Shown here: positions 1-14,793 of the stretch, piece by piece
How positions within the stretch are numbered: the stretch's first letter is position 1
Layout of the letters: each line of letters starts with the position of its first letter
Assembly (NCBI GenBank): GCA_964536865.1
Contig: CAZHYN010000001.1
Coordinates: 60,001-92,000, forward strand
Reading direction: 5' to 3'
Length of the DNA stretch: 32,000 nucleotides
From: an uncultured Planctomycetia bacterium
GTDB taxonomy: Bacteria > Omnitrophota > Gorgyraeia > Duberdicusellales > 4484-171
The notes under the pieces: model-generated
Databases searched by the model: none
The model's input: only the letters and a program-made list of their open reading frames with translations
What the model was told of the DNA's origin: nothing
Made by a program: the position numbers and the translations under genes

Positions 1-800
1 ATTTCTTCTATTTAGCTAAGGATCATGAGACAGCTCTAGTTAACACCCTAATTGAGTTAAGATTACGTCGAGGTTTAACAGTTGTTCTAGGAGACATTGG
101 CACAGGTAAAACTACTCTCTCAAGAAAGTTAATTCAGGAATTGAGAGAAAGAGAAGATTTTATTTTTCATATAATTTTAGATCCTTTCTTTGAAAATCAA
201 ACAGAGTTTCTTTATTATCTCATAAGTAGTTTTGAAATACCATTCTCTACCAATTTAACTACTCTCACTCTTAAGGAAAGTTTAGAGAAATTCCTTTTTC
301 AAAAAGGAGTGATAGAAAATAAAATAGTAGTGCTCATCATTGACGAAGCTCAAAAACTTAGCGATTTTACTTTAGAAATGTTAAGAATTCTTCTTAACTA
401 CGAAACTAACGAATTTAAACTTCTTCAATTAGTTCTTTTAGGACAACTGGAGCTTCACACCAAAATCATGAGTATTCCCAATTTTTTCGATAGGATAAGT
501 TTCAAATACACTCTTAATCCTTTAAGTTTTGAAGAAACCAAAGATATGATTGAATTTCGCATTCGTCAAGCAGGATATAAGGCGAGAATGCGTCTTTTTT
601 TAGATGAGGCAGTAGAAGAGATTTATGGATATACTAAAGGGTATCCTCGCCGAATAACTATGCTTTGTCATAGGGCCCTTAAAGAGTTGGTAATGAGAAA
701 TAAGGTAGTGGTAGATAGAAAGTTAATCAGAGGTATTGTGGAAGAGGAGATCAAAACAGGATGGTATCGGGATCCTCTACTCCCGAAAGGGAGTTATTGA
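1..800 (+). CDS. ExeA/GspA/MshM-like AAA+ secretion ATPase, copy 1 (5' partial, runs off the window edge)
   Basis: The frame of ORF 141..800 stays open back to base 3 and reads FFYLAKDHETALVNTLIELRLRRGLTVVLGDIGTGKTTLSRKL. Walker A is GDIGTGKTT and Walker B is VVLIIDEAQ. LLGQLEL and GYPRRIT motifs are typical of ExeA/MshM and the PEP-CTERM-locus secretion ATPase family. Confidence 0.8.
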   Translation, partial: FFYLAKDHETALVNTLIELRLRRGLTVVLGDIGTGKTTLSRKLIQELREREDFIFHIILDPFFENQTEFLYYLISSFEIPFSTNLTTLTLKESLEKFLFQKGVIENKIVVLIIDEAQKLSDFTLEMLRILLNYETNEFKLLQLVLLGQLELHTKIMSIPNFFDRISFKYTLNPLSFEETKDMIEFRIRQAGYKARMRLFLDEAVEEIYGYTKGYPRRITMLCHRALKELVMRNKVVVDRKLIRGIVEEEIKTGWYRDPLLPKGSY

Positions 801-1420
801 AACTCATTGAGGCAGAAAAGAAAAGTTCCTCTAGGGGAGGAGAGGTAAAAAAACGGTTACGTTTCTCTTTCCTAGGAGCTCTTAGAGGACGGTGGGCCTT
901 CTTTAAGGAGGCCTTTTCTACTAATCGTAAAGTGTTTGTAGGAGATATTAGCTTGATTAATCGAATTCTTATGGGAGTAGCTATCCTTCTCGGTTTTTAT
1001 GTAGTGGTAAACAACACTCTTTCTTTTCTCGCTCTACCTCGAAAGATAGAAAAGACTATGCAGGTAAAAACTAGGAATTTTAAGATTTCTTCTTTGAAGG
1101 AGTTATCTATTCTAAAAGAAGCTTCCTACTATTTAGATAAAGTAAAAAAGAGAGATATCTTTGCAATGGTGATAGAGAAGCCCAAAGTGAAAGAAAAGGA
1201 GGAGAAAAAGTTAATTAAAGAAGTAGAAGAGAAAACAAAAGATTTAAAATTGGTAGGGATTGCCTGGTCAGACAATCCTGATGCTATGATTGAGGATACC
1301 AAGGTAGAAAAGACCTATTTTGTCAAACAGGGAGATATTATAAATGGTGTAAGGATAGAGAGGATTTTTAGAGATAAAGTGGTGTTAACCTATAAAGGAG
1401 AAAAGATAGAGTTAAAATGA
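761..1420 (+). CDS. Bitopic inner-membrane protein with a GspB/ExeB- or PilP/GspC-HR-like C-terminal domain (secretin-interacting partner of ExeA)
   Basis: Single TM helix (INRILMGVAILLGFYVVV). The C-terminus LKLVGIAWSDNPDAMIEDTKVEKTYFVKQGDIINGVRIERIFRDKVVLTYKGEKIELK matches the L.L.GI...A.I.....y.v..GD.i.g..v..I....V.L pattern of T2SS-B/PilP domains. The stop overlaps the secretin ATG (ATGA). The start is uncertain: ATG 761 or TTG 797. Confidence 0.5.
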   Translation: MVSGSSTPERELLKLIEAEKKSSSRGGEVKKRLRFSFLGALRGRWAFFKEAFSTNRKVFVGDISLINRILMGVAILLGFYVVVNNTLSFLALPRKIEKTMQVKTRNFKISSLKELSILKEASYYLDKVKKRDIFAMVIEKPKVKEKEEKKLIKEVEEKTKDLKLVGIAWSDNPDAMIEDTKVEKTYFVKQGDIINGVRIERIFRDKVVLTYKGEKIELK

Positions 1421-3156
1421 GAAGCAAGTTTATTACTTTGTCTATCTTATTTCTCTTATCTATTAATTTTTCCTTTTTGTATGCGGATTTAGTTTCCTCA
1501 ACTAATGAGAAGATAAATAGAGATTCCTCTAGAGAAATGGAAGAGAGGATTTCTTTAGATCTGCGGAATATCGATATAGTAGATGCTCTTAAATTTTTAG
1601 CAGAGAAAGCAGGAATAAATATCGTTACTACTAAAAAAGTTAGCGGGAGAGTGACTCTCAAGGTAGACAACGTTCCTATAAAGGATATTTTTGATGTGAT
1701 GCTTCGTTCTAACAATTTAGCTTATGATAAGAAGGGGAATATTTACAATGTAATGACTGAAGAAGAATACAAAGCTCTATATGGGAAGAAGTTTTCCGAC
1801 CCCCGTCAAGTAAAGATAATTGATCTTAAGTATGCACTCCCTGAGCAGATATTTTCTTTATGTGATGTTTTAAAGAGCGATATAGGAAGAATATTGGTTA
1901 ATCCAGAGTCAGGTAAAGTGGTGATTATGGATTCTCCTGAGAAGATTAAGGAGATTGAGGAGGCTATCGAGCGATTTGAAAAAAAGAATGTAGTTAAAGT
2001 TTTTGATATAAACTATGGAGACGCTAAAGAGATTGCTGAACGTCTCAGGAGCCAACTGGAAGCTAAAAAAGTCGGTACAGTTCAGGCAGAGGAGGCTACC
2101 AATCAGATAATTATACAGACTCTTCCCGAGAGGATGAAGGAGATAGAGAGAATAATTAAGAAATTGGATAGGAAAACTAAAGAAGTTTTAATAGAGGGTA
2201 AAATTATAAAGGTAAAGTTCTCTAAGAGTCTAACAGAGAGTGTGGAATGGGAAGGGCTTTTTGATATTGCAAGAAAGCATGGACTAACTTATCTGGGTAC
2301 TTATCCTTTTAGCGCTGTTCAAGCTACTACCGATGCTTGGCGTTCACGAAAGCAGGTCTGGCAGGATACAGGGTATGTAGGTTCTTACCCTTTCAGTGGT
2401 ACCACTTCTAATTACTCAGCAGGGAAACCTAAAATGGGGTTAGAGGAAATGCATATAGGTATTATTGGTAAACATGATTTTGATGCTTTAATAAAATCCT
2501 TTAGGGAGATAGGGGAAACCCAGATTATTTCCACCCCTAAAATTATTATTACGGATAACCAGGAAGCTAATCTTCATGTAGGGGAAAGACAGGCATATGT
2601 TACTACCACTACAACTACTGGTCAGACTACTAGTACAGTTTCTGAAGAGGTCAACTTCGTAGATGTGGGAACAATTCTTTCTCTAACTCCTAAAATAAAC
2701 GAAGAAGGGTATATAACTTTAAAGATAAAGGCAGAGGTTAGTACGGTAATCTCAGAGTTGATTACTCCTACAGAGAACAAAATTCCTATAATTGATACAT
2801 CTACCGCTGAAACTACAGTGATGGTTAAAGATGGTACTCCTATTTTAATCGGAGGACTAAGGAAGGAGGAGAAAGGATTAACTTCTAAGAAAGTTCCCTT
2901 TCTAGGAGATATACCTCTTTTAGGGAAATTATTCACTTCTTATGAACCTACGCAAGGAAGGACAGAGCTGTTGATTGTTTTAACTCCTAGAATTATAAGG
3001 GGAGATATGTTTGTAGGATATACCAAAAAGAATGTGGGGCAGAAGCCTATAAAGGGAGAGAAGGTTTACTGGGAGGTAAAGCTTAAAGAGAAAAAGGAGC
3101 TGGAGAAAGAGCTCCCTTTAACTAAAGAAAGTAAATTTAAGGGGTTTAAATTCTAA
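1417..3156 (+). CDS. Secretin (GspD/PilQ/MshL family), paralog 1
   Basis: Signal peptide. N0/STN-like domain (ISLDLRNIDIVDALKFLAEKAGINIVTTKKVSGRVTLKVDNVPIKDIFDVMLRSNNLAY). C-terminal secretin core (IISTPKIIITDNQEANLHVGERQAY ... KIPIIDTSTAETTVMVKDGTPILIGGL ... KVPFLGDIPLLGKLF ... RTELLIVLTPRII). Ends in ...GFKF. Confidence 0.85.
   Translation: MRSKFITLSILFLLSINFSFLYADLVSSTNEKINRDSSREMEERISLDLRNIDIVDALKFLAEKAGINIVTTKKVSGRVTLKVDNVPIKDIFDVMLRSNNLAYDKKGNIYNVMTEEEYKALYGKKFSDPRQVKIIDLKYALPEQIFSLCDVLKSDIGRILVNPESGKVVIMDSPEKIKEIEEAIERFEKKNVVKVFDINYGDAKEIAERLRSQLEAKKVGTVQAEEATNQIIIQTLPERMKEIERIIKKLDRKTKEVLIEGKIIKVKFSKSLTESVEWEGLFDIARKHGLTYLGTYPFSAVQATTDAWRSRKQVWQDTGYVGSYPFSGTTSNYSAGKPKMGLEEMHIGIIGKHDFDALIKSFREIGETQIISTPKIIITDNQEANLHVGERQAYVTTTTTTGQTTSTVSEEVNFVDVGTILSLTPKINEEGYITLKIKAEVSTVISELITPTENKIPIIDTSTAETTVMVKDGTPILIGGLRKEEKGLTSKKVPFLGDIPLLGKLFTSYEPTQGRTELLIVLTPRIIRGDMFVGYTKKNVGQKPIKGEKVYWEVKLKEKKELEKELPLTKESKFKGFKF
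2337..2402 (+). repeat. 66-nt near-identical island shared with 5248..5313 (secretin paralogs)
   Basis: Direct comparison: 33 nt identical (2337-2369 = 5248-5280), then 10 nt with 4 mismatches, then 23 nt identical (2380-2402 = 5291-5313). Confidence 0.9.
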
Positions 3157-4355
3157 TGGGGAATTTTTTTAAGAGAGCTTCTTTCTTTCTTATCTTAAGT
3201 ATCTTAAGTATAAGTGTGGGGATTTTTGCTTTTTTAGGTTACCAAAGAGTTTCAATAAAGTCAAAGGCCAATACGGGATGTCTTCAGTTAGTTGAGGATT
3301 ACACTAATTTAGTCAAGGAATTAGCGAAGTTTAAGGCTAAGGCAGACTCTTTAGAAGTAGACAATAAGATGCTAGTTGAAGAAATGGATCGTTTGGAGAA
3401 GCAGTTAAAGGAAGTTAAGTCAGCAAAGGAAGAGGTCATTAAACAGCTTCTTGTTTTGAAAAAAGAGTGTTCCAGAAAAGAAAAGGAGTACCATTCTCTT
3501 AGAGAGAGAGTACAGATTTTAGAGAAAGAGAAAAAGAAATTATCTCAGGACAATGTAGCTTTAAATAATGTGGTGAAAAAATTAGAAAGAGACTTAACTC
3601 AGTATAAGAGCAGGTTAGAAGAGTATAAAAAAAAGGTGGCTAAAGAGAGTGAGCTTCCAGAGGATATTAAGGAACTTAAGAGTGTGCTAGAAGAAAAGAG
3701 AAGAAAGTTTTTCCAAGGATATACGGAGCTACAGAAGAGGGCACTTACTTTAGAAAAAGAAAATCAGCGGCTTACTAACCTTCTTAAGAAAACCCAGGAA
3801 GAGCTCGCTAAATTGGAGAAAGAAAACAAAGAGATTAATTCTTCCTTAAAGAGGCAAAAAGTCTTACTGGCTGAGATAGAAACTGATAGGGATTTTTACA
3901 AAATAGAGGGAGAAAAATCTAGAATAGAACTTAAAAAGTGTAATCAGACCCTTTTTCAACTCCAAAATAAATACAGTGCTGTTTTAAGAGAAAATCAGGA
4001 TCTTAAAGCAAAAATTGAGGTTATGCCCCGTAAGCTTATGGAGCTATCTCAATTAAATAAAGAACTTCTTAAGGAGAAAGCACGCCTCCACTATAACTTA
4101 GGGGTTTTTTACACCCAAAAAGGAGAGTACAAAAAAGCAATTAAAGAATTTCAAGAAGTTTTAAAGGTAGACCCTAACGATGCCGATACGCATTATAATT
4201 TAGGAGTAATATACTCTGAGTATGAGGTAGATAATGAAAAAGCAATAGACCATTTCAGAAAGTACTTAGGGTTAGCTCCTCAAGATATCTACGCTGACAA
4301 GGTAAGAGAATATCTTGTCTCTCAAGAAGTGGTTAAGGGGGATAAAGCTAAATGA
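3156..4355 (+). CDS. Membrane-anchored long coiled-coil protein with C-terminal TPR repeats (partner of secretin 1; MshN/pilotin-like role is possible)
   Basis: N-terminal TM (FFLILSILSISVGIFAFLGY), then about 260 aa of K/E/L heptad-like sequence. C-terminal TPRs (LHYNLGVFYTQKGEYKKAIKEFQEVLKVDPNDADTHYNLGVIY...). TAATG overlap with the upstream gene and ATGA overlap with the downstream gene. Confidence 0.7.
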   Translation: MGNFFKRASFFLILSILSISVGIFAFLGYQRVSIKSKANTGCLQLVEDYTNLVKELAKFKAKADSLEVDNKMLVEEMDRLEKQLKEVKSAKEEVIKQLLVLKKECSRKEKEYHSLRERVQILEKEKKKLSQDNVALNNVVKKLERDLTQYKSRLEEYKKKVAKESELPEDIKELKSVLEEKRRKFFQGYTELQKRALTLEKENQRLTNLLKKTQEELAKLEKENKEINSSLKRQKVLLAEIETDRDFYKIEGEKSRIELKKCNQTLFQLQNKYSAVLRENQDLKAKIEVMPRKLMELSQLNKELLKEKARLHYNLGVFYTQKGEYKKAIKEFQEVLKVDPNDADTHYNLGVIYSEYEVDNEKAIDHFRKYLGLAPQDIYADKVREYLVSQEVVKGDKAK

Positions 4356-6109
4356 GAAAAGTTATTATCTCTTTTATAATTTTATCGATTTTAATAGTCT
4401 ATCCAGGGTTTCCTTTTTCCTCCAGAGAGGAAAATGATAAATTATCTAAAAGAATTTCTCTAAATTTCCAAAATATTGATATTCTAGAAGCATTAAAGTA
4501 TATTGCTATAAAAGGAGGGATAAATATTATTCCTACCAGAAAAGTTTCAGGGAGGGTAACTCTTAAGGTAGATAACGCTCCTATAAAAGATATTTTTGAT
4601 ATTATGCTCCGCTCCAATAATTTAGCCTATGATAAGAAAGGGAGTATCTACAATGTGATGACTGAAGAAGAGTATAAAGCCCTCTATGGTAAAAGTTTTT
4701 CTGATACTAGGAAAGTGAAAGTATTCCATCTTACTTACGCTATACCAGAGCAGATTATGAAACTCTGTGAGAATATGAAAAGTGAGATTGGAAAGATATT
4801 TTTGGATTCTGAATCGGGTAGTTTAGTAGTAATTGATACTCCTCAGAATATAGAAGAGATAAGCAAAGCTATAGAAGATATAGAGAGCAAAAAAACGGTG
4901 ATTAAAGTATTTGATTTAAAGTACGCTAATGCTAAAGTTATAGCCGATAAGCTTAAGGAGCAAATTACTAAAAAAGGCATAGGATTTGTTCAAGCAGATG
5001 AAGCTACCAGTCAAGTAGTTGTACGAACCCTGCCAGAGAGGATGGAAGAAGTTGAAAAGATAGTTGAGGAGCTGGATAAGAAGACAAAAGAAGTGTTAAT
5101 AGATGCAAAAATCGTCAAAATTACCTTCTCTCGAGAGCTAACCCGAGGAATAGAGTGGGAAGGGCTTTTTGATGTAGCAAGAAAGTACGGTCTTACTTAT
5201 ATTGGTTCCTACCCTTTTAGTTTCGTAAGTCATACCACTACAGGCAGTTGGCGTTCACGAAAGCAGGTCTGGCAGGATACCGGATACGTTGGTTCTTACC
5301 CTTTCAGTGGTACAGCTTTTAATTATTCTAATAGCGGTAAAGTAGTAGGGGTTGAAAAGCTTCATGTAGGAGTGATAGGAAAGCATGATGTTGATGCTCT
5401 ATTTAAGTATCTCAACACTTTAGGGGAGACAAAAATTGTAGCTAATCCTAAACTAGCGGTAGTAAACAATCAGGAAGCACGCATTCACATTGGAGAAAAA
5501 CAAGCCTATATTACAAATACCACTACTCAGACAGCAAGTACCACTACGGTAGCGGAGGAAGTTACCTTTGTAGATACAGGAATTCAACTTTCCGTCACTC
5601 CAACCATAAATGAAGAGGGTTTTGTTACTATAAAGTTGAAACCGGAAATAAGCAGTGTAGCTTCTTATTTAGTTACTGCCTCCAATAATAAGATTCCCAT
5701 AATCACCACCTCCACCGCAGAAACAACAGTAATTGTAAAAAATGCCACCACCATTATTATTGGGGGCCTAAAAGAAGAGAAGGAGGAGAAAAGTTCCAAG
5801 GAAGTTCCTGTGTTAAGTAAGATTCCTATGATAGGAGCCTTTTTTTCCTCAAAAAATAAAACCAAAACTCGCTCAGAACTTCTTATCTTGGTCACTCCCC
5901 ATATAATTAAAGGGGATGAGCTTACTACTGGATATCAGAGAGATTTTGGGCATCGTCTGGATAAAGAGGATCAACCTTACGCTTCCTTCTCTCCCCAAAA
6001 AATAGAATTTGAGTGCAAACCTTATCAATCTTATCCTCGCTTAGATGAAAAGGAGTCTTTTAAATTAAAGCCAGCAAGGGTTTCTTATGAAGAAGATCCC
6101 AAAGGTTGA
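4352..6109 (+). CDS. Secretin (GspD/PilQ/MshL family), paralog 2
   Basis: Same domain layout as 1417..3156, with long identical peptide blocks (SGRVTLKVDN.PIKDIFD.MLRSNNLAYDKKG.IYNVMTEEEYKALYGK.FSD; WRSRKQVWQDTGYVGSYPFSGT). Secretin core: IVANPKLAVVNNQEARIHIGEKQAY ... KIPIITTSTAETTVIVKNATTIIIGGL ... EVPVLSKIPMIGAFF ... RSELLILVTPHII. The C-terminal tail is divergent. Confidence 0.85.
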   Translation: MRKVIISFIILSILIVYPGFPFSSREENDKLSKRISLNFQNIDILEALKYIAIKGGINIIPTRKVSGRVTLKVDNAPIKDIFDIMLRSNNLAYDKKGSIYNVMTEEEYKALYGKSFSDTRKVKVFHLTYAIPEQIMKLCENMKSEIGKIFLDSESGSLVVIDTPQNIEEISKAIEDIESKKTVIKVFDLKYANAKVIADKLKEQITKKGIGFVQADEATSQVVVRTLPERMEEVEKIVEELDKKTKEVLIDAKIVKITFSRELTRGIEWEGLFDVARKYGLTYIGSYPFSFVSHTTTGSWRSRKQVWQDTGYVGSYPFSGTAFNYSNSGKVVGVEKLHVGVIGKHDVDALFKYLNTLGETKIVANPKLAVVNNQEARIHIGEKQAYITNTTTQTASTTTVAEEVTFVDTGIQLSVTPTINEEGFVTIKLKPEISSVASYLVTASNNKIPIITTSTAETTVIVKNATTIIIGGLKEEKEEKSSKEVPVLSKIPMIGAFFSSKNKTKTRSELLILVTPHIIKGDELTTGYQRDFGHRLDKEDQPYASFSPQKIEFECKPYQSYPRLDEKESFKLKPARVSYEEDPKG

Positions 6110-7064
6110 GAAAGTTGACCTAAATAAGATATCTTTATCTTTGGTACTTTTTATTTCTTTTCTCTACTTTCCCTACGTTTATACCCAAGAGAAGAGTGTT
6201 TCTTTAAAGGAGGAATATCGGAAACTAAAGGAGGCATATGATCAGGTAGTTAAAGACAGAGATAATCTTTTATTTCAGGCAAAAAATCTCCTGAAGTATA
6301 AAAAGAAGGTTAGGGAGCTGGAGAAAGAGCTCCAAGATTTACTCAAAGAGAAAGAGAAGTTTGATTTAGAGATTAAAAAAAGGGAAGACTATATTAAAGA
6401 GCTTAAGAAGAAAATTAAGGAGCTTACCCAAGAAAATACTCAGCAGTTGGAGCAAATCGCGGCTTTAAAAAATTATATTGAAAAGATGGAGGTTGAATAT
6501 AAAATAATTAATGAGACAAGGAAGAAAATTAAGGAGTTAAAGGACGAAAAAAGAAAGTTAAAAGGTGAGATAAGGAAATTAACTGCTAAGATAAAGAAGC
6601 TAGAGGACGAAAAGATCGATTTAAAAGCAGAGACTTTGGTATATAAGAGGCAATTCTACGAAATAAGGAGAAAGTATGAGGAGGCATTAGCTAAGAATAG
6701 AAGATTGGAAAAAAAATTAGCTGAGGTTCCTAAAAAGTTTGCTGAGATTGCTAGAGAAAATAAAGCTCTTATAAAAGAAACTGCGTTGATGCATTATAAC
6801 TTAGGAGTTTTTTATACCCAACATAAGGAGTATAAGCGAGCAATTGCTGAATTTGAAAAAGCAATTGAGCTTAATCCTGACGACCCTTATGCTCATTTTA
6901 ATCTTGGTTATATTTATGCTGAGTATCTCCTAAATCGTCCCAAGGCTATAGAACATTTCAGGCATTACCTCCGGTTGGCAGATAAGAACGATAAAGATGT
7001 TGATTGGGTAAAAAAATATATTCTCACTTGGCAGGCTTGGGAAGGAAAGACCCCTCTTAAGTGA
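6087..7064 (+). CDS. Membrane-anchored coiled-coil + TPR protein (paralog of 3156..4355; partner of secretin 2)
   Basis: N-terminal hydrophobic segment (ISLSLVLFISFLYFPYVY), about 200 aa of coiled-coil-like sequence, then a TPR block (MHYNLGVFYTQHKEYKRAIAEFEKAIELNPDDPYAHFNLGYIY...AIEHFRHYL) colinear with the C-terminus of 3156..4355. Confidence 0.7.
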   Translation: MKKIPKVEKVDLNKISLSLVLFISFLYFPYVYTQEKSVSLKEEYRKLKEAYDQVVKDRDNLLFQAKNLLKYKKKVRELEKELQDLLKEKEKFDLEIKKREDYIKELKKKIKELTQENTQQLEQIAALKNYIEKMEVEYKIINETRKKIKELKDEKRKLKGEIRKLTAKIKKLEDEKIDLKAETLVYKRQFYEIRRKYEEALAKNRRLEKKLAEVPKKFAEIARENKALIKETALMHYNLGVFYTQHKEYKRAIAEFEKAIELNPDDPYAHFNLGYIYAEYLLNRPKAIEHFRHYLRLADKNDKDVDWVKKYILTWQAWEGKTPLK

Positions 7065-7079
7065 AAGAAAGGAGGATTT

Positions 7080-7658
7080 ATGAGAAGAACTATTTTTATT
7101 TTAATTAGTATTATACTTACTCTTTCTCTTATGGATAATATAGAGGCTTCCTCTGGGAGAGTTCCAAGGGAGGAAAAAGAAGGTGCTGGTCCTCCTCAAG
7201 TATCCAGAGAAACTGCCCCCTCCAAAAAAGAAGCAGTTAGATCTCTTTCTAAAGAAAGACAAAAGAAACTAGAGGCAAAGCGTCTTCAGAAAGAGAAGGA
7301 GCTTTTACAAAAGAAGAAAAAAGCATTAAATAACACTGAATGGGATATAGAAATTGTTCCTATAGGTAGAAAAGGTAGAAAGACCAAAGACACCTTAATT
7401 TTTAAAGATATGAAAGTTTTTTCTAAGAATCTAAAAAATAAAAAATTCTCCCCTACTAACTACTCCTTACATCTTAATCAGGATGGAACTTTAGTCTGGG
7501 AAACTATGCAGACAAATCAGGATGGAAAGATTGTGTTCTGGCGAGGAGAGGTTACCCCAGATATGAGGTTTATGAGAGGGATAATTACTTTTCCTGATGA
7601 GGAGAAAAATAAAGATTTTAGTTTTAAGAGTACAGCTAAAAGAATTTTGGCTCCTTAA
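7080..7658 (+). CDS. Secreted protein of unknown function (signal peptide, charged linker, beta-rich C-terminal domain)
   Basis: Strong SD (aaaggagg) 5-6 nt upstream of the ATG. Signal-peptide-like N-terminus MRRTIFILISIILTLSLMDNIEA. I recognise no family motif. Confidence 0.6.
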   Translation: MRRTIFILISIILTLSLMDNIEASSGRVPREEKEGAGPPQVSRETAPSKKEAVRSLSKERQKKLEAKRLQKEKELLQKKKKALNNTEWDIEIVPIGRKGRKTKDTLIFKDMKVFSKNLKNKKFSPTNYSLHLNQDGTLVWETMQTNQDGKIVFWRGEVTPDMRFMRGIITFPDEEKNKDFSFKSTAKRILAP

Positions 7659-7678
7659 AATAACGAGGGAGGTGATTT

Positions 7679-8494
7679 ATTTATACTGAATATTGGGGCC
7701 TAACCTGTAAGCCATTTGAAAATGTAGCTGATCCTAACTTTTTCTATTGTTCTTCCACTCATCGAGAGGCTTTAGCAAGGATGATTTATGCGGTAAGAGA
7801 GAGAAAGTTAGGATTTCTTCTATTGGGCAGATATGGTTTAGGCAAGACTTTTTTGAGCAAGGCCTTAGAGAAAGAGTGTTCCGATAGTAACTATAGGTTT
7901 GTATCTATCTCCAATCCTCGACTTACTCCTTTAGAACTAGTTAAAGAAATCAGCTATCAGCTGGGAGTAGTTCCAGTAGATCAAAGTTGGACTAAGGTTG
8001 ATTATCTTCATAAGATAAAAGAGACTTTGGAGAAAAATTACCAGGAAGGTTTCCATACTGTCATTATAATAGATGAAATGCAAAGTATTGAAAGTAACGA
8101 AGTACTTGAAGAAATAAGGCTATTTTTCAATTTGCAGAAAGAGGTTATCTTTTTTACTTTAATCCTTTTGGCCCAATTATCTTTTAAAGAAAATTTAGAG
8201 AAGTTTCCTCACTTCAAACAAAGGATACCTATAAGATATGAACTGTCTCCTTTGGATGAAGGAGAAACAAAAAAGTATATAGAGTTCCGCTTAAAAAAAG
8301 CAGGTGCAGCTAAAGAGATTTTCTCTTCCAAGGCATGTAAGCAGATTTATGCTCTAAGTAAAGGAGTTCCTCGCTTGATAAATAATATTTGTGACTTAGC
8401 TCTTTTAGCAGGGTACTTAGATAGTTTGGAAGTAATCAAAGAAGATACTATCCTTCAAATAGCTCAGGATCTGGGGGAGACACCAAATGATTGA
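7679..8494 (+). CDS. ExeA/GspA/MshM-like AAA+ secretion ATPase, copy 2 (proposed ATT start)
   Basis: Walker A GRYGLGKTF, Walker B VIIIDEMQ, KGVPRLIN motif. The first ATG (7781) truncates the family-typical N-terminus. The frame is open from 7676 and encodes YTEYWGLTCKPFENVADPNFFYCSSTHREALARM. The only start-like codon is ATT 7679, which sits 6 nt after a near-perfect SD GGGAGGTGA (7667-7675). Confidence 0.75.
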   Translation: MYTEYWGLTCKPFENVADPNFFYCSSTHREALARMIYAVRERKLGFLLLGRYGLGKTFLSKALEKECSDSNYRFVSISNPRLTPLELVKEISYQLGVVPVDQSWTKVDYLHKIKETLEKNYQEGFHTVIIIDEMQSIESNEVLEEIRLFFNLQKEVIFFTLILLAQLSFKENLEKFPHFKQRIPIRYELSPLDEGETKKYIEFRLKKAGAAKEIFSSKACKQIYALSKGVPRLINNICDLALLAGYLDSLEVIKEDTILQIAQDLGETPND

Positions 8495-9503
8495 TTTTTC
8501 AAAAATTTTTGGAAACGGTAAAGATAAAGAGAAACCTTCATCCCCCATTCATTTTGCTAAGGAACCACCCAAAGAGAAACTGCCTTCTAAGAAGGAAGCA
8601 AAGAAAATTTCCGAGAAAGAAAAAATGTTAGGTGGTATAGATGTGAAGCTTCTATATAAGGAATCTCTTGTCTTAGCAGATAAAATTTTCAGCTCTTCCC
8701 AACCTATTTTACCGGAAGATGTAAAAGAAGTTAAGGAAATAGTTGAGAAAATTGTAGATTGTATAACTAGAGAGGGCGAACGGTTGGTTGAAATCACCTT
8801 TAATAAGCTCCCCCAGGAGTACCACTTTATTTCTCTGAATATGGTTAACGTGTGTGTTCTATCTCTATATATAGGAATAGCCTTAGGTCTTTCTCGAGAT
8901 AAGCTTATAGATCTAGGAATAGCTGCTCTCCTTCATGATTTAGGGATGAAAAAATATCAAAGTATAATTGATCAACCTCGAAAATTAACTCCCCAAGAGT
9001 ATAAGGAAATAGAAAATCATCCTATTGTAACTGCCCAGATGCTTTCTCATCTTAAAGAGTTAAGCAGTAAAATCTTAGAGAGTATAAGTCAAGAACATGA
9101 ACGTATGGATGGCTCGGGTTATCCTAAAAATTTAAAGAAAGAAGAAATTGATGAGTTTGCACAAATAATGGCAGTAGTAGATGTTTATGAAGCTTTAACT
9201 CACTCTCGTCCCTATCGCGAGGCTTATAAACCCTCAGAGGCAATTAAAATTATGTTAGAGATGAAAGAAAGATTCAGCTATACAGTGATGAATGTTTTTT
9301 TAGAAAAAATAGGAATTTATCCTAAAGGAAGTTATGTAGAGCTTAACACAAGAGAGATAGCCCAGATAGTACGACAGAATCCTAAACTTCCTTGTTATCC
9401 GGTAATCAAAATAATTTACAATAGTAAAGGAGAAAAATTAGATGAGCCTAAAGAGGTAGATTTGAGCACTAACCCGACAGTTTATATTAGGAAGTGTCTA
9501 TAA
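8487..9503 (+). CDS. HD-GYP domain protein (putative c-di-GMP phosphodiesterase or sensor)
   Basis: AALLHDLGM (HD motif) and EHERMDGSGYPKNL (HHE..DG.GYP motif with the first His replaced by Glu). No receiver domain is seen. 8-nt overlap with the upstream gene. Confidence 0.85.
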   Translation: MIDFSKIFGNGKDKEKPSSPIHFAKEPPKEKLPSKKEAKKISEKEKMLGGIDVKLLYKESLVLADKIFSSSQPILPEDVKEVKEIVEKIVDCITREGERLVEITFNKLPQEYHFISLNMVNVCVLSLYIGIALGLSRDKLIDLGIAALLHDLGMKKYQSIIDQPRKLTPQEYKEIENHPIVTAQMLSHLKELSSKILESISQEHERMDGSGYPKNLKKEEIDEFAQIMAVVDVYEALTHSRPYREAYKPSEAIKIMLEMKERFSYTVMNVFLEKIGIYPKGSYVELNTREIAQIVRQNPKLPCYPVIKIIYNSKGEKLDEPKEVDLSTNPTVYIRKCL

Positions 9504-9522
9504 ATTAAAAATTTCCCTTTTT

Positions 9523-10875
9523 ATGAAGAAATTTTCAGTATATATTTTAACAGCATTAATACTTTTTTCTCTTTATAATTTTGTGAAACTAAGGGTAGAG
9601 TTTTCTAATGAGAAAAAAAAAGGAGAGATGCTTAGTCAAAGATTAAAAGAAGCCGAAAGAGAGTCTCAACACCTAAAAGAGCTAATAAATAGTAGGGAGA
9701 AGGAGATAGATAAATTAAAGAGAGAATTAGAGGAACTTAAGTTTCCTCAGCGTCTAAAGAACGCCCTTGCTCAAGCGCAGGACCTTATAAGAAAACTGAA
9801 CGATGATTTAAGTAACTTAAGAAGAGAAAAAACTCGCTTGGAGAAGGAAAATTTTTCCCTTAAAGAGAGAATAGAGCTTAGTAACAAACGAATTACTCAA
9901 TTACTTGCTCAACTGGAGGAGGTAAGAGACAAATTTGAAGTTAGCAAGAAAGAAAGAGGTAGAGTTATAGCAAGAGAAATTACCAGATTGAAGAAAGCGT
10001 TAGAGGAGAAAGACAAGGAAACAGAGGATTTAAGAAAGGATTTAGAGAGGTATAAAGAGAAAGCTTCAGATTTAGAAAGAAAGGCCAAGTTCTTAAGAGC
10101 TCAACTTACTAAAGTTAAAAGAGGATTTTCTAAAGATACTTCAGATAGAAAGAGAGTGAAGCAATTAATGGCTTCTTTGGAGAGGGTAAATAGAGAAAAA
10201 GATACACTTTCTGCGGAGGTTAGACAACTTAGGTTAGAGAGAGAACAGCTACAGAGAAAAATTGATGAATTGTCCAAACTTAATCAAGATTTACAGCATC
10301 AGGTGAGCCAACTTAAAAAGCAAATAGAGGAAAAAGAAGAGCAGATAGTTAGTCTAGAGAAGAAAATTAAGAAAGGTGTCTCTTCAGTTGATACAGAGAC
10401 AAGACTCCTAAGAGCTAGACTAGCTCTCCAGAAAGAGGAATTTCAAAAAGTAAATACTCTCTATCAAGAACTAAAAGAGCAACTGAAAGATTTAGCAAAG
10501 ATTATCTCTGATAAAGAACAAGAGATAGAAAGTAAAGATAAAGAGATAGCTAGATTAAATCAGGAAATTTCTTATTTAAAACTTAGATTAGTAGATTTAG
10601 AAGATAGGTTGAAGGAGACACAGAGTATTCAGGACGAAGTTTTAAGAAGGTTTTCTGAAGTAGTAGAATTAAATTCTGCTCTTCAAGAAAAGTTAGGGAC
10701 GATTTCTACTTTTTTAGGTAAGCCCAGGGTTAAGAAGAAAACAACCTTAAGAGAAGAATTAACTTTACCTGAAGAACCAGAAGTAGTAAGTTCTTCGGAA
10801 GGGGGGGAGAAGGAGCGAGTAGAAAGTTTAAAGAAGCAGGTAGAAGTTATCCTTCATGAAAGTTCACAGGAATAG
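9523..10875 (+). CDS. Membrane-anchored long coiled-coil protein (third of this kind, no TPR)
   Basis: N-terminal TM (VYILTALILFSLYNFV), then about 400 aa of E/K/L/R-rich heptad-like sequence. Tightly spaced in the operon. Confidence 0.65.
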   Translation: MKKFSVYILTALILFSLYNFVKLRVEFSNEKKKGEMLSQRLKEAERESQHLKELINSREKEIDKLKRELEELKFPQRLKNALAQAQDLIRKLNDDLSNLRREKTRLEKENFSLKERIELSNKRITQLLAQLEEVRDKFEVSKKERGRVIAREITRLKKALEEKDKETEDLRKDLERYKEKASDLERKAKFLRAQLTKVKRGFSKDTSDRKRVKQLMASLERVNREKDTLSAEVRQLRLEREQLQRKIDELSKLNQDLQHQVSQLKKQIEEKEEQIVSLEKKIKKGVSSVDTETRLLRARLALQKEEFQKVNTLYQELKEQLKDLAKIISDKEQEIESKDKEIARLNQEISYLKLRLVDLEDRLKETQSIQDEVLRRFSEVVELNSALQEKLGTISTFLGKPRVKKKTTLREELTLPEEPEVVSSSEGGEKERVESLKKQVEVILHESSQE

Positions 10876-11731
10876 TTTTCTCTGGATAAAAACTTTTTTA
10901 AAACTACCACTAAAGATTATCTTTCTTTTAAGTGTAGGGGGAATTTTACTTTTTTCCTATGCCAGCTATTCTAAAACTCCTCAAGAAGAGGCTAAGGAGC
11001 ATTATCGCTTAGGGGAGATTTATTACCAGCATGGTCTTTATAAGGAAGCAGAAAGAGAATTTAAGAAAGCCTTACAGTTGCTCAAAAGAGAAGTTCCTTT
11101 GGAAGAGGAAGGGTCATTTCAAAAAGAGGGGAAACCTCCCTCTCCTTCTGAGGAATCTCAGTATATTATCTCCCCGGGCGATGTTCTTTATATAAGTGTG
11201 TGGGAGAATCCTGATTTGACTGGGGAGGTTATCGTACGCCCCGATGGGATGATTTCTTTCCCTCTTATAGATGAGGTAAAAGCAGCTGGGTTAACTATAT
11301 CTGAGTTAGATAAAGAGATGACTGAAATGCTTAAGGAATATATTCGTTTCCCTGACGTTTCTATCTCTCTAAGAGCAATGGGGGGTCAAAGGGTAATTAT
11401 TCTCGGAGAAGTAAAAAGTCCTGGAGTTTACTCTTTAAAAGGGAGAAAAACTGTTTTAGAGGCAGTAGCTTTGGCAGGAGGATTTACTAAGGACGCAGTT
11501 TTAAACAGTGTAATAGTAATAAAAGGAGGGCTCAAAAACCCCCATCCTAAACGGGTAGATTTAGCCAGCGCTCTTAAAAAAGGAAAGATGAAAGAAGATA
11601 TTGTGTTAGACTCTCAAGATATAGTCTTTGTTCCAAAAAAGTTTATTGCTGATTTAAATTATTTTTTAACTCAGATTTTGGGTCCTATATCCCGAGGAGT
11701 TTATACTGCCAAGGAAATTCAACGCTGGTAA
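10856..11731 (+). CDS. Short outer-membrane polysaccharide export (OPX, Wza-like) protein with an N-terminal TM/TPR extension
   Basis: Poly_export (PES) motif YIISPGDVLYISVWENPDLTGEVIVRPDGMISFPLIDEVKAAGLTISEL, then one SLBB-like domain (VIILGEVKSPGVYSLKGRKTVLEAVALAGGF). One TPR-like repeat at the N-terminus (HYRLGEIYYQHGLYKEAEREFKKALQL). No lipobox and no long C-terminal amphipathic helix. Confidence 0.8.
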   Translation: MKVHRNSFLWIKTFLKLPLKIIFLLSVGGILLFSYASYSKTPQEEAKEHYRLGEIYYQHGLYKEAEREFKKALQLLKREVPLEEEGSFQKEGKPPSPSEESQYIISPGDVLYISVWENPDLTGEVIVRPDGMISFPLIDEVKAAGLTISELDKEMTEMLKEYIRFPDVSISLRAMGGQRVIILGEVKSPGVYSLKGRKTVLEAVALAGGFTKDAVLNSVIVIKGGLKNPHPKRVDLASALKKGKMKEDIVLDSQDIVFVPKKFIADLNYFLTQILGPISRGVYTAKEIQRW

Positions 11732-11764: not shown

Positions 11765-12061
11765 GTGATGAGTTTTTGGCAGAAAAAATATAAAAAGAAT
11801 CCCAATATGGTATTTAGAAAGATTGCTGATGAGGTAATTTTAGTGCCCATAAGAAATAAAGTAGGTGATTTACAGAGTATCTATACCTTGAATGAAGTTG
11901 GTGCACGTATATGGAAGTTAATTAATGGAAAGAGAGAATTAGCCAAGATTAAGGAGATTCTTTTGGAGGAGTTCAGCGTCGATGTTCCTCGAGTTGAAGA
12001 AGATTTAAAAGCATTTGTACAGAAATTAGAAAGAATAGGAGCAGTAGAGGAAGTTAAGTAG
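11765..12061 (+). CDS. PqqD-family protein (RiPP recognition element)
   Basis: 98 aa. VFRKIADEVILVP...IYTLNEVGARIWKLINGKRELAKIKEILLEEFSVD...DLKAFVQKLERIGAV matches the PqqD/RRE pattern. The start may be GTG 11765 or ATG 11768. Confidence 0.8.
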   Translation: MMSFWQKKYKKNPNMVFRKIADEVILVPIRNKVGDLQSIYTLNEVGARIWKLINGKRELAKIKEILLEEFSVDVPRVEEDLKAFVQKLERIGAVEEVK

Positions 12062-12067
12062 CATAAT

Positions 12068-13189
12068 ATGGAGTGTATTTATATACCTAAGATTTCTTAT
12101 AGGGAGTTTAGTGAATCAATTCACAGGAAAGTAGGAGAAAAACGAATTCCCCTTAATGGATCTATAGAGGTTACTTTGCGTTGTAACTTAAGATGTCTAC
12201 ATTGTTACTGTAGTTACAACTCTCAAAAAAAAGAATTAAGTTATAAAGATTTCTGTCGTATTTTTGACGAGATTGCTGATATGGGGTGTTTGTGGCTGCT
12301 TATTACAGGAGGAGAGCCACTCTTAAGAGAGGATTTTTTAAAAATTTATACTTACGCTAAAAAGAAAGGATTTATTATAACACTTTTTACTAATGCAACC
12401 TTACTTACCCCTTCCATTGTGGATTGTTTAAAAGATTATCCTCCTTTTGCGGTGGAGGTTACTTTGTATGGAATAACTAAATCTACTTATGAGAAAATTA
12501 CTCGTATTCCTGGTTCATTTAACCGATGTATAGAAGGTATTCATCTTCTTTTAGAAAGAAAAATTCCTCTTAGGTTAAAAACAGTGGTGATGAATTTAAA
12601 TAAACACGAGCTTTTCAAGATAAAGAGATTTGCCGAAAATTTGGGAGTAGAGTTTAGATTTGACCCTCTTATTAACCCTAAATTAGATGGCTCTAAAGAA
12701 CCTTGCAAGTTGAGAATTTCGCCACAAGAAGTTATTGAGCTTGATTTAATGGATAAAAAAAGAAAAGAAGCATGGGAGGAGTTCTGTAAAAAATTTCCTT
12801 CGCCTATAAACTCAGAATGGCTTTACAGTTGTAGTGCAGGAAGAACTTCTTTCCACATAGATCCCTATGGAAATTTAAGTATTTGTATTATTGAAAGGTT
12901 CCATACCTACAATCTTTTAAAGGGCACATTTAAGGAAGGATGGGAAACTTTTATCCCTGAAAAAATACTCAGTCTTAAAAAAGATAATAGATACGAATGC
13001 AATCAGTGCCAGTTAAGAGACTTATGCGATCGTTGTCCTGGGTGGTCACAGCTTGAAGCAGGTAACCCTCAGGAAGTGGTAGATTATCTTTGTCAGATAG
13101 CTCATCTAAGAGCCAAAGTGTTTGGTTTTGGCAGAGAAAGAAAGGAGGGGGAGAAAGATGAAAAAGAGAGAAAAAAAATTCTACTCTAA
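12068..13189 (+). CDS. Radical SAM enzyme with a C-terminal SPASM domain (peptide-modifying maturase type)
   Basis: CxxxCxxC cluster CNLRCLHC near the N-terminus and a GGEPLL motif. The C-terminal Cys-rich SPASM pattern is CSAGRTSFHIDPYGNLSIC ... CNQCQLRDLCDRCPGW ... C. Confidence 0.85.
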   Translation: MECIYIPKISYREFSESIHRKVGEKRIPLNGSIEVTLRCNLRCLHCYCSYNSQKKELSYKDFCRIFDEIADMGCLWLLITGGEPLLREDFLKIYTYAKKKGFIITLFTNATLLTPSIVDCLKDYPPFAVEVTLYGITKSTYEKITRIPGSFNRCIEGIHLLLERKIPLRLKTVVMNLNKHELFKIKRFAENLGVEFRFDPLINPKLDGSKEPCKLRISPQEVIELDLMDKKRKEAWEEFCKKFPSPINSEWLYSCSAGRTSFHIDPYGNLSICIIERFHTYNLLKGTFKEGWETFIPEKILSLKKDNRYECNQCQLRDLCDRCPGWSQLEAGNPQEVVDYLCQIAHLRAKVFGFGRERKEGEKDEKERKKILL

Positions 13190-13331
13190 ACCTCAGATAA
13201 AAGAAGTTAATTTAGTGCCTCAAGAAGCAGTCCTTCTTGGTTGTAAAACTACAGCTGATCCCAGTGGGAGAACAGTTGGGCGGAATAATTGTGGTAACAG
13301 AGATAACTTTTGTCAAACCGCGGTAAGTTAG
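13158..13331 (+). CDS. Candidate RiPP precursor peptide (57 aa): MKKREKKFYSKPQIKEVNLVPQEAVLLGCKTTADPSGRTVGRNNCGNRDNFCQTAVS
   Basis: An internal ATG of track ORF 13122..13331 is preceded by GGAGG (13144-13148) at 9-nt spacing. It overlaps the last 32 nt of the rSAM gene. Basic N-terminus, a YSKPQI (YxxPx[LI]) leader-like motif, three Cys in the C-terminal half and a C-terminal Ser. Confidence 0.5.
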   Translation: MKKREKKFYSKPQIKEVNLVPQEAVLLGCKTTADPSGRTVGRNNCGNRDNFCQTAVS

Positions 13332-13360
13332 TTGTAATAAGTTAACTTTATTTAGTAAGG

Positions 13361-14233
13361 ATGCTAAAGGTAGAAATAGGGGGAGTGGCTATTTCTCTTT
13401 CTTTTGTAGATGGTAAAGGTTGGATACCTCAAGTTAGTAAAGCAATGCATTCTTTTCTTACTAGGAGAAAAAGGTTCGATTTAGCTCTTAAGGTTCACTG
13501 CGGTTTTCTTCCCCATCTGAATGTAAAGAGAGTTGTGTTTAATTCGGGAGGAAACTGGACTCTTTTTAAGGATAGAAATAATAGATTAGTTTTTTCTCTT
13601 ACTTCCCCTGCTACCGGTCCTCATCCTTATGCTTTGGCAGTTGTTGATTCTCAATTTAAAGTAGGGAATTTATACCTTAGAGAGCCAAATTACTTTCTTT
13701 CTAAAAAAGCTATTGTGAATCCTTTAGAGTACCCCTTAGATGAGGTTTTAGTAGTGCATCTTCTCTCAAGAAATAGAGGAATACTTCTTCATGGATGCGG
13801 AATTAAATACAAAGGAGAGGGGCTACTTTTTTTAGGAACTTCGGGAAGAGGAAAAAGCACCATTGCCAATCTTTGGAAGGAAGAGAAAGAAGTCGCCATT
13901 TTAAGTGACGATAGAATTGTTGTCCGCAAGAAAGGCTCCAATTTCTGGATATATGGTACTCCCTGGCACGGAGATGCAAAATTATGTTCTCCTCAGAAAG
14001 TAGTTCTAAAGAAGATATTTTTTCTTAAGCACGGCAAGAAAAATTCGCTTAAAAAGATGAAGTTAAGTGAAATAATTTCTCAGTTAGTTGTCTGTTCTTT
14101 CCCTCCTTTTTGGGATAAGAAAGGTATGAAGTTTATCTTAAGTTTTTGTTCTGATTTAGCAAAAGTTCCTTCTTATGAGCTAAATTTCCTACCTAACAGG
14201 AGTGTTTTGGATCTTATCAAACGTAAGGTGTGA
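13361..14233 (+). CDS. HPr-kinase-like (HprK-related) serine kinase family protein
   Basis: LHGCGIKYKGEGLLFLGTSGRGKSTIANLW ... LSDDRIVV ... GTPWHGD resembles the HprK C-terminal P-loop core (lHG..v...g.GvLi.G.SG.GKS ... DD.v). Confidence 0.75.
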   Translation: MLKVEIGGVAISLSFVDGKGWIPQVSKAMHSFLTRRKRFDLALKVHCGFLPHLNVKRVVFNSGGNWTLFKDRNNRLVFSLTSPATGPHPYALAVVDSQFKVGNLYLREPNYFLSKKAIVNPLEYPLDEVLVVHLLSRNRGILLHGCGIKYKGEGLLFLGTSGRGKSTIANLWKEEKEVAILSDDRIVVRKKGSNFWIYGTPWHGDAKLCSPQKVVLKKIFFLKHGKKNSLKKMKLSEIISQLVVCSFPPFWDKKGMKFILSFCSDLAKVPSYELNFLPNRSVLDLIKRKV

Positions 14234-14730
14234 AGTGCCAAAATTCTGAATTTTTAAAGTTAAGTAAGGATATATTAGAGAAAGGGTTTTCTCTTCGCTT
14301 TCAGGTAAGGGGGGCAAGTATGTACCCTTTTATCAAAAGCGGTGATACCGTGGAAATAGAGCCAAAGAATATCTCCAAAATAAACTATGCGGATATTATC
14401 CTTTACGCCAATTACGAAGGAAAAATTGTAATCCATCGAGTAGTAAAAAAAATCAAGAAGAATAATGAAACTATCCTAGCAACTAGAGGAGACTTTCTGC
14501 CACCTTCCTTAAGAGAGTTTGTTCCTTCAGAGAAAGTATTAGGTAAAGTTGTAGTTATTAGAAAGGCAAATAGGATGTTTAGAATAGATAGGGGATTTTT
14601 AAGGCTGTTGAATATTGTATATACCAAACTTTTACCTATTATTAGGTGGGGACATAGTTTTGGTGCCAAACTGCTAAAGTTTACCCCGAGCCACAGAAAG
14701 TTACCTGTGACATTACATCGGGGTGGATAA
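14230..14730 (+). CDS. S26-family signal-peptidase-like protease (archaeal/ER type, Ser-His)
   Basis: RGASMYPFIKSGDTVEI (Ser box), KIVIHRVV (His box), TRGDF (GDN-like box). GTGA start/stop overlap with the kinase gene. Hydrophobic C-terminal segment. Confidence 0.65.
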   Translation: MKCQNSEFLKLSKDILEKGFSLRFQVRGASMYPFIKSGDTVEIEPKNISKINYADIILYANYEGKIVIHRVVKKIKKNNETILATRGDFLPPSLREFVPSEKVLGKVVVIRKANRMFRIDRGFLRLLNIVYTKLLPIIRWGHSFGAKLLKFTPSHRKLPVTLHRGG

Positions 14731-14793
14731 ATGTCTATCCAAATACCTCCAAGCATAATTTCAAAGCAATATGCGATTGTTATATCGGGGTGG
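14717..14793 (+). repeat. 10-bp G-rich direct repeat ATCGGGGTGG (14717-14726 and 14784-14793)
   Basis: Read directly. Both copies are translated as (H/Y)-R-G-G in the reading frame of their own gene. Confidence 0.9.

Follow-up and report, generated by a model that had tools for sequence, protein, structure and literature searches.

A two-secretin module joined to a class-3 polysaccharide export gene in Candidatus Omnitrophota

[quoted passage not shown] We analysed one instance of this arrangement in 32,000 nucleotides (nt) of an uncultured bacterium (GenBank assembly GCA_964536865.1, contig CAZHYN010000001.1, positions 60,001 to 92,000), a stretch hereafter called the window, and compared it with related loci. 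Chance does not account for the position of the OPX gene beside the secretin module. We consider it somewhat probable that the block represents the duplicated outer-membrane half of an Omnitrophota machine resembling a type II secretion system (T2SS), co-expressed with a class-3 OPX protein of an exopolysaccharide (EPS) pathway under a BldC/MerR-like regulator and cyclic di-GMP (c-di-GMP) control. For this reading we infer assembly roles for the accessory proteins, co-regulation, and secretins that carry T2SS substrates rather than polysaccharide.

The module is a run of 11 genes at positions 1-11731, all on the + strand: an ExeA-like ATPase (ExeA1), a GspC/GspB-like protein, secretin 1, a protein combining a coiled coil with tetratricopeptide repeats (CC-TPR 1), secretin 2, CC-TPR 2, a secreted protein named U192, a second ExeA-like ATPase (ExeA2), an HD-GYP protein, a coiled-coil protein and the OPX protein. 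These identities, obtained from open reading frame (ORF) calls and from Pfam and NCBIfam profile searches, agree in order, nature and strand with the initial annotation, made from the sequence alone. That annotation had also described every junction as an overlap or a spacer of 20 nt or less. The successive junctions measure -40, -4, -1, -4, -23, +15, +122, -8, +19 and -20 nt, and the description holds for all but the 122-nt gap ahead of ExeA2, the sole junction above 19 nt when counted from the first ATG. This gap is probably an annotation artefact and the true spacer 20 nt, because the same frame, upstream of ATG 7781, already encodes the conserved ExeA N-terminus (YTEYWGLTCKPF...), from a probable ATT start at 7679; GGAGG stands 8 nt ahead of this ATT.

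The window, with a G+C content of about 34%, holds 30 ORFs of at least 80 amino acids (aa) with a possible assignment, all but two on the + strand. Pfam searches of these ORFs and a six-frame motif scan of the window detected no pilin, GspE/PilB, GspF/PilC or prepilin peptidase, as the initial annotation had stated. The same annotation had let the run continue into the EPS locus and, in its title, made the Wzc gene co-operonic with the secretins. The run does proceed on the + strand to 15925, but a pair of oppositely oriented (- strand) ABC transporter genes at 15949-17464 separates it from Wzc, which begins at 18989. Wzc therefore lies outside the secretin operon: the secretins are co-operonic with the OPX gene and not on one transcript with Wzc. 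A promoter scan of the window gave no excess of sites (46, against 48.6 in shuffled sequences), terminator-like sites were unsuitable for fixing transcript ends, and an Rfam scan of the window and the upstream contig returned no riboswitch or other RNA except one tRNA.

Homologues of the secretins at 55-69% identity come almost exclusively from metagenome-assembled genomes (MAGs) of Candidatus Omnitrophota, the nearest relative (94-97% identity) being a MAG from Guaymas Basin. We collected 99 loci and mapped them with the proteins of the window; individual loci are cited by L numbers. The gene order of the module is repeated in dozens of Omnitrophota contigs at protein identities of 50-60%, and the arrangement is therefore far beyond chance. 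Two types of locus can be distinguished. Type A, the form of the window, consists of an optional MerR_1 gene, ExeA1 and/or a SurA-like gene, the GspC-like gene, secretin 1, CC-TPR, secretin 2, a second CC-TPR, U192, an optional ExeA2, HD-GYP, the coiled-coil gene and OPX. Loci of type B carry a single secretin or an independently duplicated pair, followed by CC-TPR, copies of U192 and a SurA-like gene, often with giant ORFs beyond; they contain neither HD-GYP nor OPX.

OPX accompanies type A in all loci long enough to judge. An HD-GYP gene follows the last secretin in 27 loci, 18 of which contain OPX, and the other nine contigs end no more than 2.3 kb past HD-GYP; all of these loci with at least 5.4 kb of sequence have the OPX gene (12/12). 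Conversely, loci devoid of the HD-GYP/OPX block (type B and the T2SS-fused locus L068) that extend at least 7 kb downstream have none (0/14). What follows OPX is variable: a PqqD cassette, Wzc and Wzy, PGI with an ECF sigma/anti-sigma pair, a TPR protein with DNA polymerase I, or TpsB/TpsA. In L091, OPX has been shifted to the front of the module. Given these varied downstream genes and the shift in L091, OPX travels with the secretins and not with EPS biosynthesis genes. The TpsB/TpsA case comes from one type-A locus, L051, where OPX is immediately followed by a two-partner secretion pair (16960-20844): a TpsB of the ShlB/FhaC type and a TpsA that has a TPS domain.

That an ordinary pilus or T2SS operon merely adjoins an unrelated EPS locus is thus highly improbable. 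An EPS biosynthesis locus does follow in the window, as this explanation would have it, but the OPX gene shares 20 nt with the module gene before it, and the junction is kept in the 12 adequately long loci across about 50% protein divergence. The region upstream offers no pilus or T2SS operon either. It was viewed through contigs whose ExeA1, GspC-like and secretin 1 are 100% identical to those of the window and which add 8 kb: Mut7-C, FMN reductase, carA, carB, a tRNA, a MerR_1 gene and then the ATPase at its full length of 286 aa, with no pilus or T2SS core gene among them. The initial annotation had asked whether a complete pilus or T2SS set lay immediately upstream; over these 8 kb, housekeeping genes stand there instead.

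Secretin 1 (1417-3156, +) and secretin 2 (4352-6109, +) are 58% identical. Both belong to the secretin superfamily (PF00263; 152.8 and 158.5 bits for a cutoff of 27.5), each with two Secretin_N domains (72 bits) and an STN domain (30-31 bits). Their scores fall below the cutoff of every subfamily model: 242.7 and 243.3 bits for GspD (TIGR02517, cutoff 351), 248.6 and 246.8 for PilQ (TIGR02515, cutoff 284), 156.2 and 160.2 for MshL (TIGR02519, cutoff 250). The top PDB sequence match of secretin 1 is Pseudomonas aeruginosa GspD (5wln). An AlphaFold2 model of secretin 2 (pLDDT, the per-residue confidence measure, 66) comprises N0, two ring-building domains, the barrel and a disordered tail, and its whole-chain fold matches are headed by PulD (6hcg), followed by other GspDs. 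A secretin phylogeny, proposed in the initial annotation, separated three groups: in a bootstrapped neighbour-joining tree of 120 secretins, the first secretins of type A form one clade (A-s1, 58/60, with secretin 1), the second ones another (A-s2, 58/60, with secretin 2) and a third group is clade B (34/60), and A-s2 is confined to modules that contain OPX. Residues ~286-335 of secretin 2, and their equivalent in secretin 1, form a clade-specific insertion that separates the last ring-building domain from the barrel, with invariant or near-invariant W300, S302, R303 and G314 and then YPFSGT; model confidence is very low there.

A genomic link to an inner-membrane half is provided by loci L068 and L069. 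In these, an ExeA1/GspC-like/secretin/CC-TPR block is followed, 15 nt later, by a complete inner-membrane set: GspE (T2SSE 428 bits, with MshEN and PilZ domains), GspF, GspG (113 bits), a further pseudopilin, GspJ, GspK, a PilM-PilN fusion and a GspM-like protein. The block resembles that of the window at 57% identity for the secretin, a member of clade B, and 68% for ExeA1. The GspE family of L068 occurs throughout the phylum at 60-66% identity, and is as widespread and as conserved as the secretin. Both GspE loci inspected (L100 and L101) have an F-type ATPase operon as neighbour, together with a giant ORF, and encode GspE and GspF, with no secretin and no GspC; L100 also has pseudopilins, GspK, PilM/N and GspM, while sensor-kinase and response-regulator genes follow GspF in L101. 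The fused loci on one side and the GspE loci lacking secretin and GspC on the other therefore point to two complementary halves, and the secretin module is best read, from its gene content, as supplying GspA, GspC and GspD to a split machine. Since GspE-M directly adjoins the orthologous block in L068/L069, the lack of T2SS genes in the window does not amount to T2SS independence. The initial annotation had titled the module as one with no pilus or T2SS machinery; in view of the fusion and of the secretin-less GspE operons found elsewhere, this lack is weaker evidence than that annotation supposed.

T2SS-like loci have been described in the phylum, in support of a half-machine: West-Roberts et al. 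(bioRxiv 10.1101/2023.11.21.568195) report conserved Omnitrophota loci with gspD, gspE, gspF and a peptidyl-prolyl isomerase (PPIase), adjoining giant genes, and Seymour et al. (PMC10066038) class Omnitrophota clusters adjacent to an F-type ATPase as type-4a pili. Phylum, secretin family and a conserved PPIase are common to these descriptions and ours, and type-B loci with giant ORFs downstream fit them; the window differs in being a two-secretin, type-A locus with ExeA2, HD-GYP, coiled coil and OPX and no giant gene. Giant ORFs lie downstream of type-B modules (L061 17184-21551, L084 14859-21635, L097 14888-19581) and upstream of the F-ATPase/GspE loci (L100 1-4600, L101 1-4441). They range from at least 1456 to at least 3298 aa and run off the loci, with Kre9_KNH and Reelin_subrepeat-B matches in L084 and L100; substrates of the T2SS-like machine are a possible role for them.

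The type-4a classification of Seymour et al. is one argument for a different reading, in which the secretins gate a surface pilus of the type IVa or MSHA kind for host or surface attachment, and the ExeA-like, secretin and TPR proteins are counterparts of MshM, MshL and MshN. The PilQ model does score marginally above GspD (249 against 243 bits), MshL reaches 156-160 bits, and the partner GspE carries an MshEN domain. We nevertheless hold this reading to be unlikely: all subfamily scores are below cutoff, full-length fold matches are headed by T2SS secretins, the linked filament genes match T2SSG, T2SSJ, T2SSK and T2SSM_b, a GspC-like protein with a putative HR-type domain takes the place of PilP and PilO, and the fused locus L068 yielded no PilT-type retraction ATPase. 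Compared directly with the MSHA triad of Vibrio, the window shares the joint encoding of a secretin, an ExeA-like ATPase and a TPR protein, and MshEN on the partner ATPase. It differs in its MshL scores, far from the cutoff of 250, in the absence of detected MshI/J/K genes and MSHA pilins, and in TPR proteins that possess long coiled coils and a membrane anchor.

The other pole of the module is the OPX protein (10856-11731, +), 291 aa long, with a signal or anchor, one TPR hairpin, a Poly_export domain and one SLBB domain. Membership of the OPX family (PF02563) is supported by 87.1 bits for Poly_export (cutoff 28), with SLBB_2 at 45.6 and SLBB at 43.6 bits. In Foldseek, its AlphaFold2 model (pLDDT 83.8) matches domains D1-D2 of Wza (E 1e-17) and the crystal structure of the class-3 protein WzaB (9n9a). 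The C-terminus consists of just two helices of 13 and 6 residues (pLDDT ~55), a conserved proline breaks this tail, and Pfam finds neither Wza_C nor GfcC in the protein. Class 3 was defined by Saidi et al. (2022) as Poly_export-SLBB(n) alone, without a Wza_C helix or GfcC domain; by this definition the protein is a class-3 OPX with no part that spans the outer membrane. Such proteins require an outer-membrane partner (PMC9603273, PMC12819527). No Wzp/PgaA-like porin is encoded in the window, where every sufficiently large ORF is otherwise assigned, and no porin-like gene was flagged in two further versions of the EPS locus, L102 and L103.

This missing partner gives weight to the view, suggested in the initial annotation, that the secretins are used as, or coupled to, the conduit of a polysaccharide exporter. 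In its full form, the secretins, and especially secretin 2, would be the outer-membrane exit of a Wzx/Wzy polysaccharide: a Wzc-fed OPX ring would dock under the secretin in place of a Wzp-type porin, with the coiled-coil and TPR proteins as scaffolds, and a T2SS-like pseudopilus possibly pushing the polymer. Several observations agree with it. OPX is fixed to the module (12/12 adequately long loci, 18/27 overall) and the link outlasts different downstream neighbours and a rearrangement; the A-s2 clade occurs solely in OPX modules; the OPX protein has no membrane-spanning helix; and three versions of the EPS locus yielded no porin gene. There is also a precedent in the PilQ/GspD nozzles needed for slime secretion (PMC12475490).

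The distribution of the OPX family argues in the opposite direction. The OPX proteins form one orthologous Omnitrophota family, found elsewhere directly before Wzc-Wzy, and their conserved C-terminal segment is the same with or without linkage to a secretin; the partner would therefore be one common to all these genomes and not secretin 2 specifically. In a genome with a clade-B secretin, this same OPX family, with the same C-terminal segment, occurs in a stand-alone locus: the type-B contig has a MerR_1-OPX-Wzc-Wzy-Wzx-glycosyltransferase operon, immediately preceded by the PqqD cassette and ABC genes and ~15 kb from the secretin module. A second counter-example is the complete Omnitrophota genome CP070807.1. 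There, secretin 2 ends near residue 385, before the barrel (L005, 14084-15304), while secretin 1 is kept; the secretin locus has no U192, ExeA2 or HD-GYP, and an intact coiled-coil/OPX/PqqD cassette/Wzc/Wzy locus lies 840 kb from it. The truncated gene is directly followed by pth and ribosomal protein genes and looks like a rearrangement scar.

The occurrence of this OPX family in stand-alone EPS loci, once together with a truncated secretin 2, weakens the idea of a secretin conduit. Its support is, moreover, of a single kind, synteny, and the porin could be encoded elsewhere, as it is for ~29% of myxobacterial class-3 OPX genes (PMC9603273). The fixed linkage and the unseen porin thus stand in favour of the initial proposal, the stand-alone OPX loci and the truncated secretin against it, and we regard it as rather unlikely. 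A related idea, that the OPX protein of the module is a repurposed paralogue serving as a mere adaptor of the secretin ring, was rejected as a principal reading because in-module and EPS-locus OPX proteins are one family, separated by similar distances and sharing the conserved tail.

The reading of the block as a co-expressed T2SS-like half can be stated as follows. The block would be the outer-membrane and periplasmic half of a T2SS-like (type IV filament) machine found throughout Candidatus Omnitrophota. The GspA/ExeA-like ATPase would act in the cytoplasm, the HR-type domain of the GspC/GspB-like protein would bind the N0 domain of the secretin and tie it to the inner-membrane platform, and the CC-TPR partner of each GspD-type secretin would probably aid ring assembly or positioning. 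The inner-membrane half would be encoded at another locus: GspE (with MshEN and PilZ), GspF, pseudopilins G/J/K, a GspL-like PilM-PilN fusion and GspM. In one large sub-lineage that includes the window, the secretin unit has been duplicated, an ExeA-like/HD-GYP pair gained, and the unit joined in a single operon to a coiled-coil protein and to the class-3 OPX of a Wzx/Wzy EPS pathway. A protein-secretion gate and a periplasmic EPS exporter would then be made together, under a BldC/MerR-like regulator and c-di-GMP control; such joint production would fit surface attachment or biofilm building.

Co-regulation is suggested by three features: helix-turn-helix (HTH) genes whose products share 55% identity head the secretin module and the type-B OPX-Wzc operon, an HD-GYP gene is part of the module, and c-di-GMP-binding MshEN and PilZ domains are present on GspE. 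The MerR_1/BldC-like HTH gene at L103 9606-9818 heads the OPX-Wzc operon and is 55% identical to that of the secretin module. MshEN-type ATPases are described as c-di-GMP receptors (PMC4624772). The simplest reason for the merger of the secretin and OPX operons is a regulatory logic common to both. The HTH gene of the window's own module lies just upstream of the window and encodes 78 aa (L001, 8079-8315). L006 has an additional MerR_1/BldC-like copy between a CC-TPR gene and secretin 2. Omnitrophota GspE (L068 6481-8625; L100 9538-12154) combines an N-terminal MshEN with a C-terminal PilZ domain, and in L100 and L101 a small stand-alone MshEN protein precedes GspE, which makes three c-di-GMP-type modules per secretion ATPase unit.

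Five points weigh against this explanation. A class-3 OPX needs an outer-membrane partner, yet a porin gene is unseen in the window, L102 and L103. OPX is kept with the secretins even with PGI plus a sigma factor, DNA polymerase I or a two-partner secretion pair behind it, a pattern that co-regulation alone explains poorly, and OPX is still attached after the rearrangement in L091, for which co-regulation alone gives no account. No separate GspC-like gene accompanies secretin 2. Finally, the part of the window's genome that was read, 32 kb plus 8 kb upstream, contains no inner-membrane T2SS gene.

Among the accessory proteins, ExeA1 (<1-800, +, its 5' end cut by the window edge; AAA_22 77 bits) is a GspA-like ATPase that precedes the GspC-like gene in most loci, at 62-72% identity. 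ExeA2 (7679-8494, +, from the probable ATT start) has AAA_22 at 55 bits. Walker A and DEAQ/DEMQ motifs are readable in the translations of these ATPases, whose scores of 148.1 and 137.4 bits are well below the cutoff of 324.5 for the XrtA/PEP-CTERM ATPase (TIGR03015). ExeA2 is always paired with an HD-GYP gene in the collected loci. L014 carries two tandem ExeA2/HD-GYP pairs upstream of ExeA1 (1764-6196), which indicates that ATPase and phosphodiesterase move as a pair. The HD-GYP protein itself (8487-9503, +; HD_5 118.9 bits) retains intact LHD and HERMDGSGYP motifs, and c-di-GMP phosphodiesterase activity is predicted from them.

The GspC/GspB-like protein (761-1420, +) is a bitopic protein of 219 aa with a putative C-terminal HR-type domain. 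Its T2SSC (24.6 bits, cutoff 27) and T2SSB (21.8 bits) matches are weak and below cutoff, and the GspC HR domain 3oss_C matches its C-terminus at E=0.02 only, with a plausible alignment. Its gene is upstream of the first secretin in every locus that covers this position. A CC-TPR gene follows every secretin. Both proteins of the window are membrane-anchored coiled coils with TPR ends that are 44% identical: CC-TPR 1 (3156-4355, +) has its repeat at residues 309-342 (TPR_1 53 bits), and CC-TPR 2 (6087-7064, +) matches TPR_11 at 41 bits. Their length runs from ~300 to 1431 aa among loci. For the partner of the first secretin it varies between ~400 and 1431 aa (e.g. L061, 5469-9764) while the TPR end is conserved, a spread that is hard to square with a simple ruler spanning the periplasm.

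U192 (7080-7658, +; 192 aa) has no Pfam, NCBIfam or PDB match. Up to three copies stand after the last TPR gene, a position conserved in type A and type B alike. Profile-profile alignment with the GspC-like family gave a probability of 0.7%, and U192 is unrelated to the GspC HR domain. The membrane-anchored coiled-coil protein (9523-10875, +; 450 aa) gives coiled-coil family matches only; its gene is immediately upstream of OPX in type-A loci, and a coiled-coil gene also adjoins OPX in CP070807.1.

Downstream of OPX, a cassette at 11765-15925 (+) encodes PqqD, a radical SAM protein, a Cys-rich precursor, an HprK/ScmC-like protein, a SipW-type signal peptidase and an NTP_transf_5 protein; the PqqD cassette accompanies OPX in many loci. 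The small Cys-rich ORF after the radical SAM gene (13158-13331, +) resembles the precursor of a ribosomally synthesized and post-translationally modified peptide, with a leader of the form KK.Y.KP.IKEV.L.PQEAVL.GCK and a core with Cys. It has counterparts at L027 8067-8237, L047 10144-10302, L102 12305-12463 and L103 4429-4605, and the cassette, judged by its predicted genes, resembles the SynChlorMet type. Beyond the two ABC transporter genes lies a SurA/PrsA-like chaperone (17541-18938, +; SurA_N weak, PPIase PRK00059 41 bits). In other loci its homologues belong to the secretin module, where they stand behind ExeA1 and ahead of the GspC-like gene, downstream of U192 or immediately downstream of OPX. 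Genes of the secretion module and of the EPS pathway are thus interleaved. The Wzx/Wzy-type EPS locus (18989-31669, +) encodes Wzc, a Wzy-like protein, Wzx, methyltransferases, glycosyltransferases of families GT2, GT4 and GT9 and an amine oxidase, and the same gene set stands behind MerR_1-OPX in a type-B genome.

The closest known counterpart of the module is the outer-membrane subcomplex of the T2SS (ExeA/ExeB-ExeD of Aeromonas, PulD-PulC). Common traits are a secretin with N0 and ring-building domains, a gene for a bitopic protein with a putative HR domain just upstream of the secretin and overlapped by that of an ExeA-like P-loop ATPase, and an orthologous block contiguous with GspE-M in L068/L069. 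GspD has three ring-building domains after N0 (N1-N3), whereas the secretins of the window have two, together with the clade-specific insertion of 50 residues and no recognisable S domain. Other differences are a short, soluble ATPase in which no transmembrane or peptidoglycan-binding domain was found, the duplication of the secretin with a CC-TPR partner for each copy, subfamily scores below cutoff, and the usual lack of linkage between the Omnitrophota unit and the inner-membrane genes. The loci of the XrtA/PEP-CTERM type (TIGR03015, TIGR03027, an EpsD-type PPIase and a chain-length determinant/tyrosine kinase) supply the best NCBIfam matches of both ATPases, the OPX protein and parts of Wzc, and a PPIase-like chaperone is present in the window. 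All these scores are nevertheless below cutoff (128.5 bits against 180 for the OPX model TIGR03027), and no exosortase or PEP-CTERM protein occurs in the window. PEP-CTERM loci are not known to contain secretins.

On the polysaccharide side, the WzaB-WzpB-WzcB system of Myxococcus xanthus (PMC9603273, PMC12819527) has in common with the window a short Poly_export and SLBB protein without Wza_C, the fold match to 9n9a and a Wzc, Wzy, Wzx pathway nearby. The OPX protein of the window differs in having no lipobox and an N-terminal TPR hairpin, in a gene placed inside a secretin operon, and in the lack of a visible Wzp-like porin gene. In the slime nozzles (PilQ of filamentous cyanobacteria, GspD of M. 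xanthus; PMC12475490), a PilQ/GspD-family secretin is likewise tied to the release of a non-protein polymer, the tie being here one of gene linkage alone; there it is experimental, and the secretin is part of a complete type IV pilus or T2SS, with no reported genetic fusion to OPX.

Literature searches on Omnitrophota and secretins, secretins and OPX, and PEP-CTERM and secretins returned no description of the type-A secretin-OPX module. The arrangement touches on the question of how class-3 OPX proteins, the commonest class, pass polysaccharide across the outer membrane without a Wzp porin: in a lineage of an uncultured, often host-dependent phylum, the sole OPX gene seen is joined to genes for two secretins, a predicted c-di-GMP phosphodiesterase and putative assembly factors. 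The passage of non-protein polymers through secretins is a recent proposal from cyanobacteria and myxobacteria, and this operon offers a clean genetic handle on both matters. Were the secretins indeed the conduit, they would constitute a fourth kind of outer-membrane polysaccharide translocon, and lend genetic support from an independent phylum to the contested export of non-protein polymers by secretins. The conservative reading is also informative: the Omnitrophota T2SS-like machine would be split into two complementary loci, its outer-membrane half duplicated and its expression tied to EPS export, all of which would bear on how these nanobacteria attach to surfaces and hosts.

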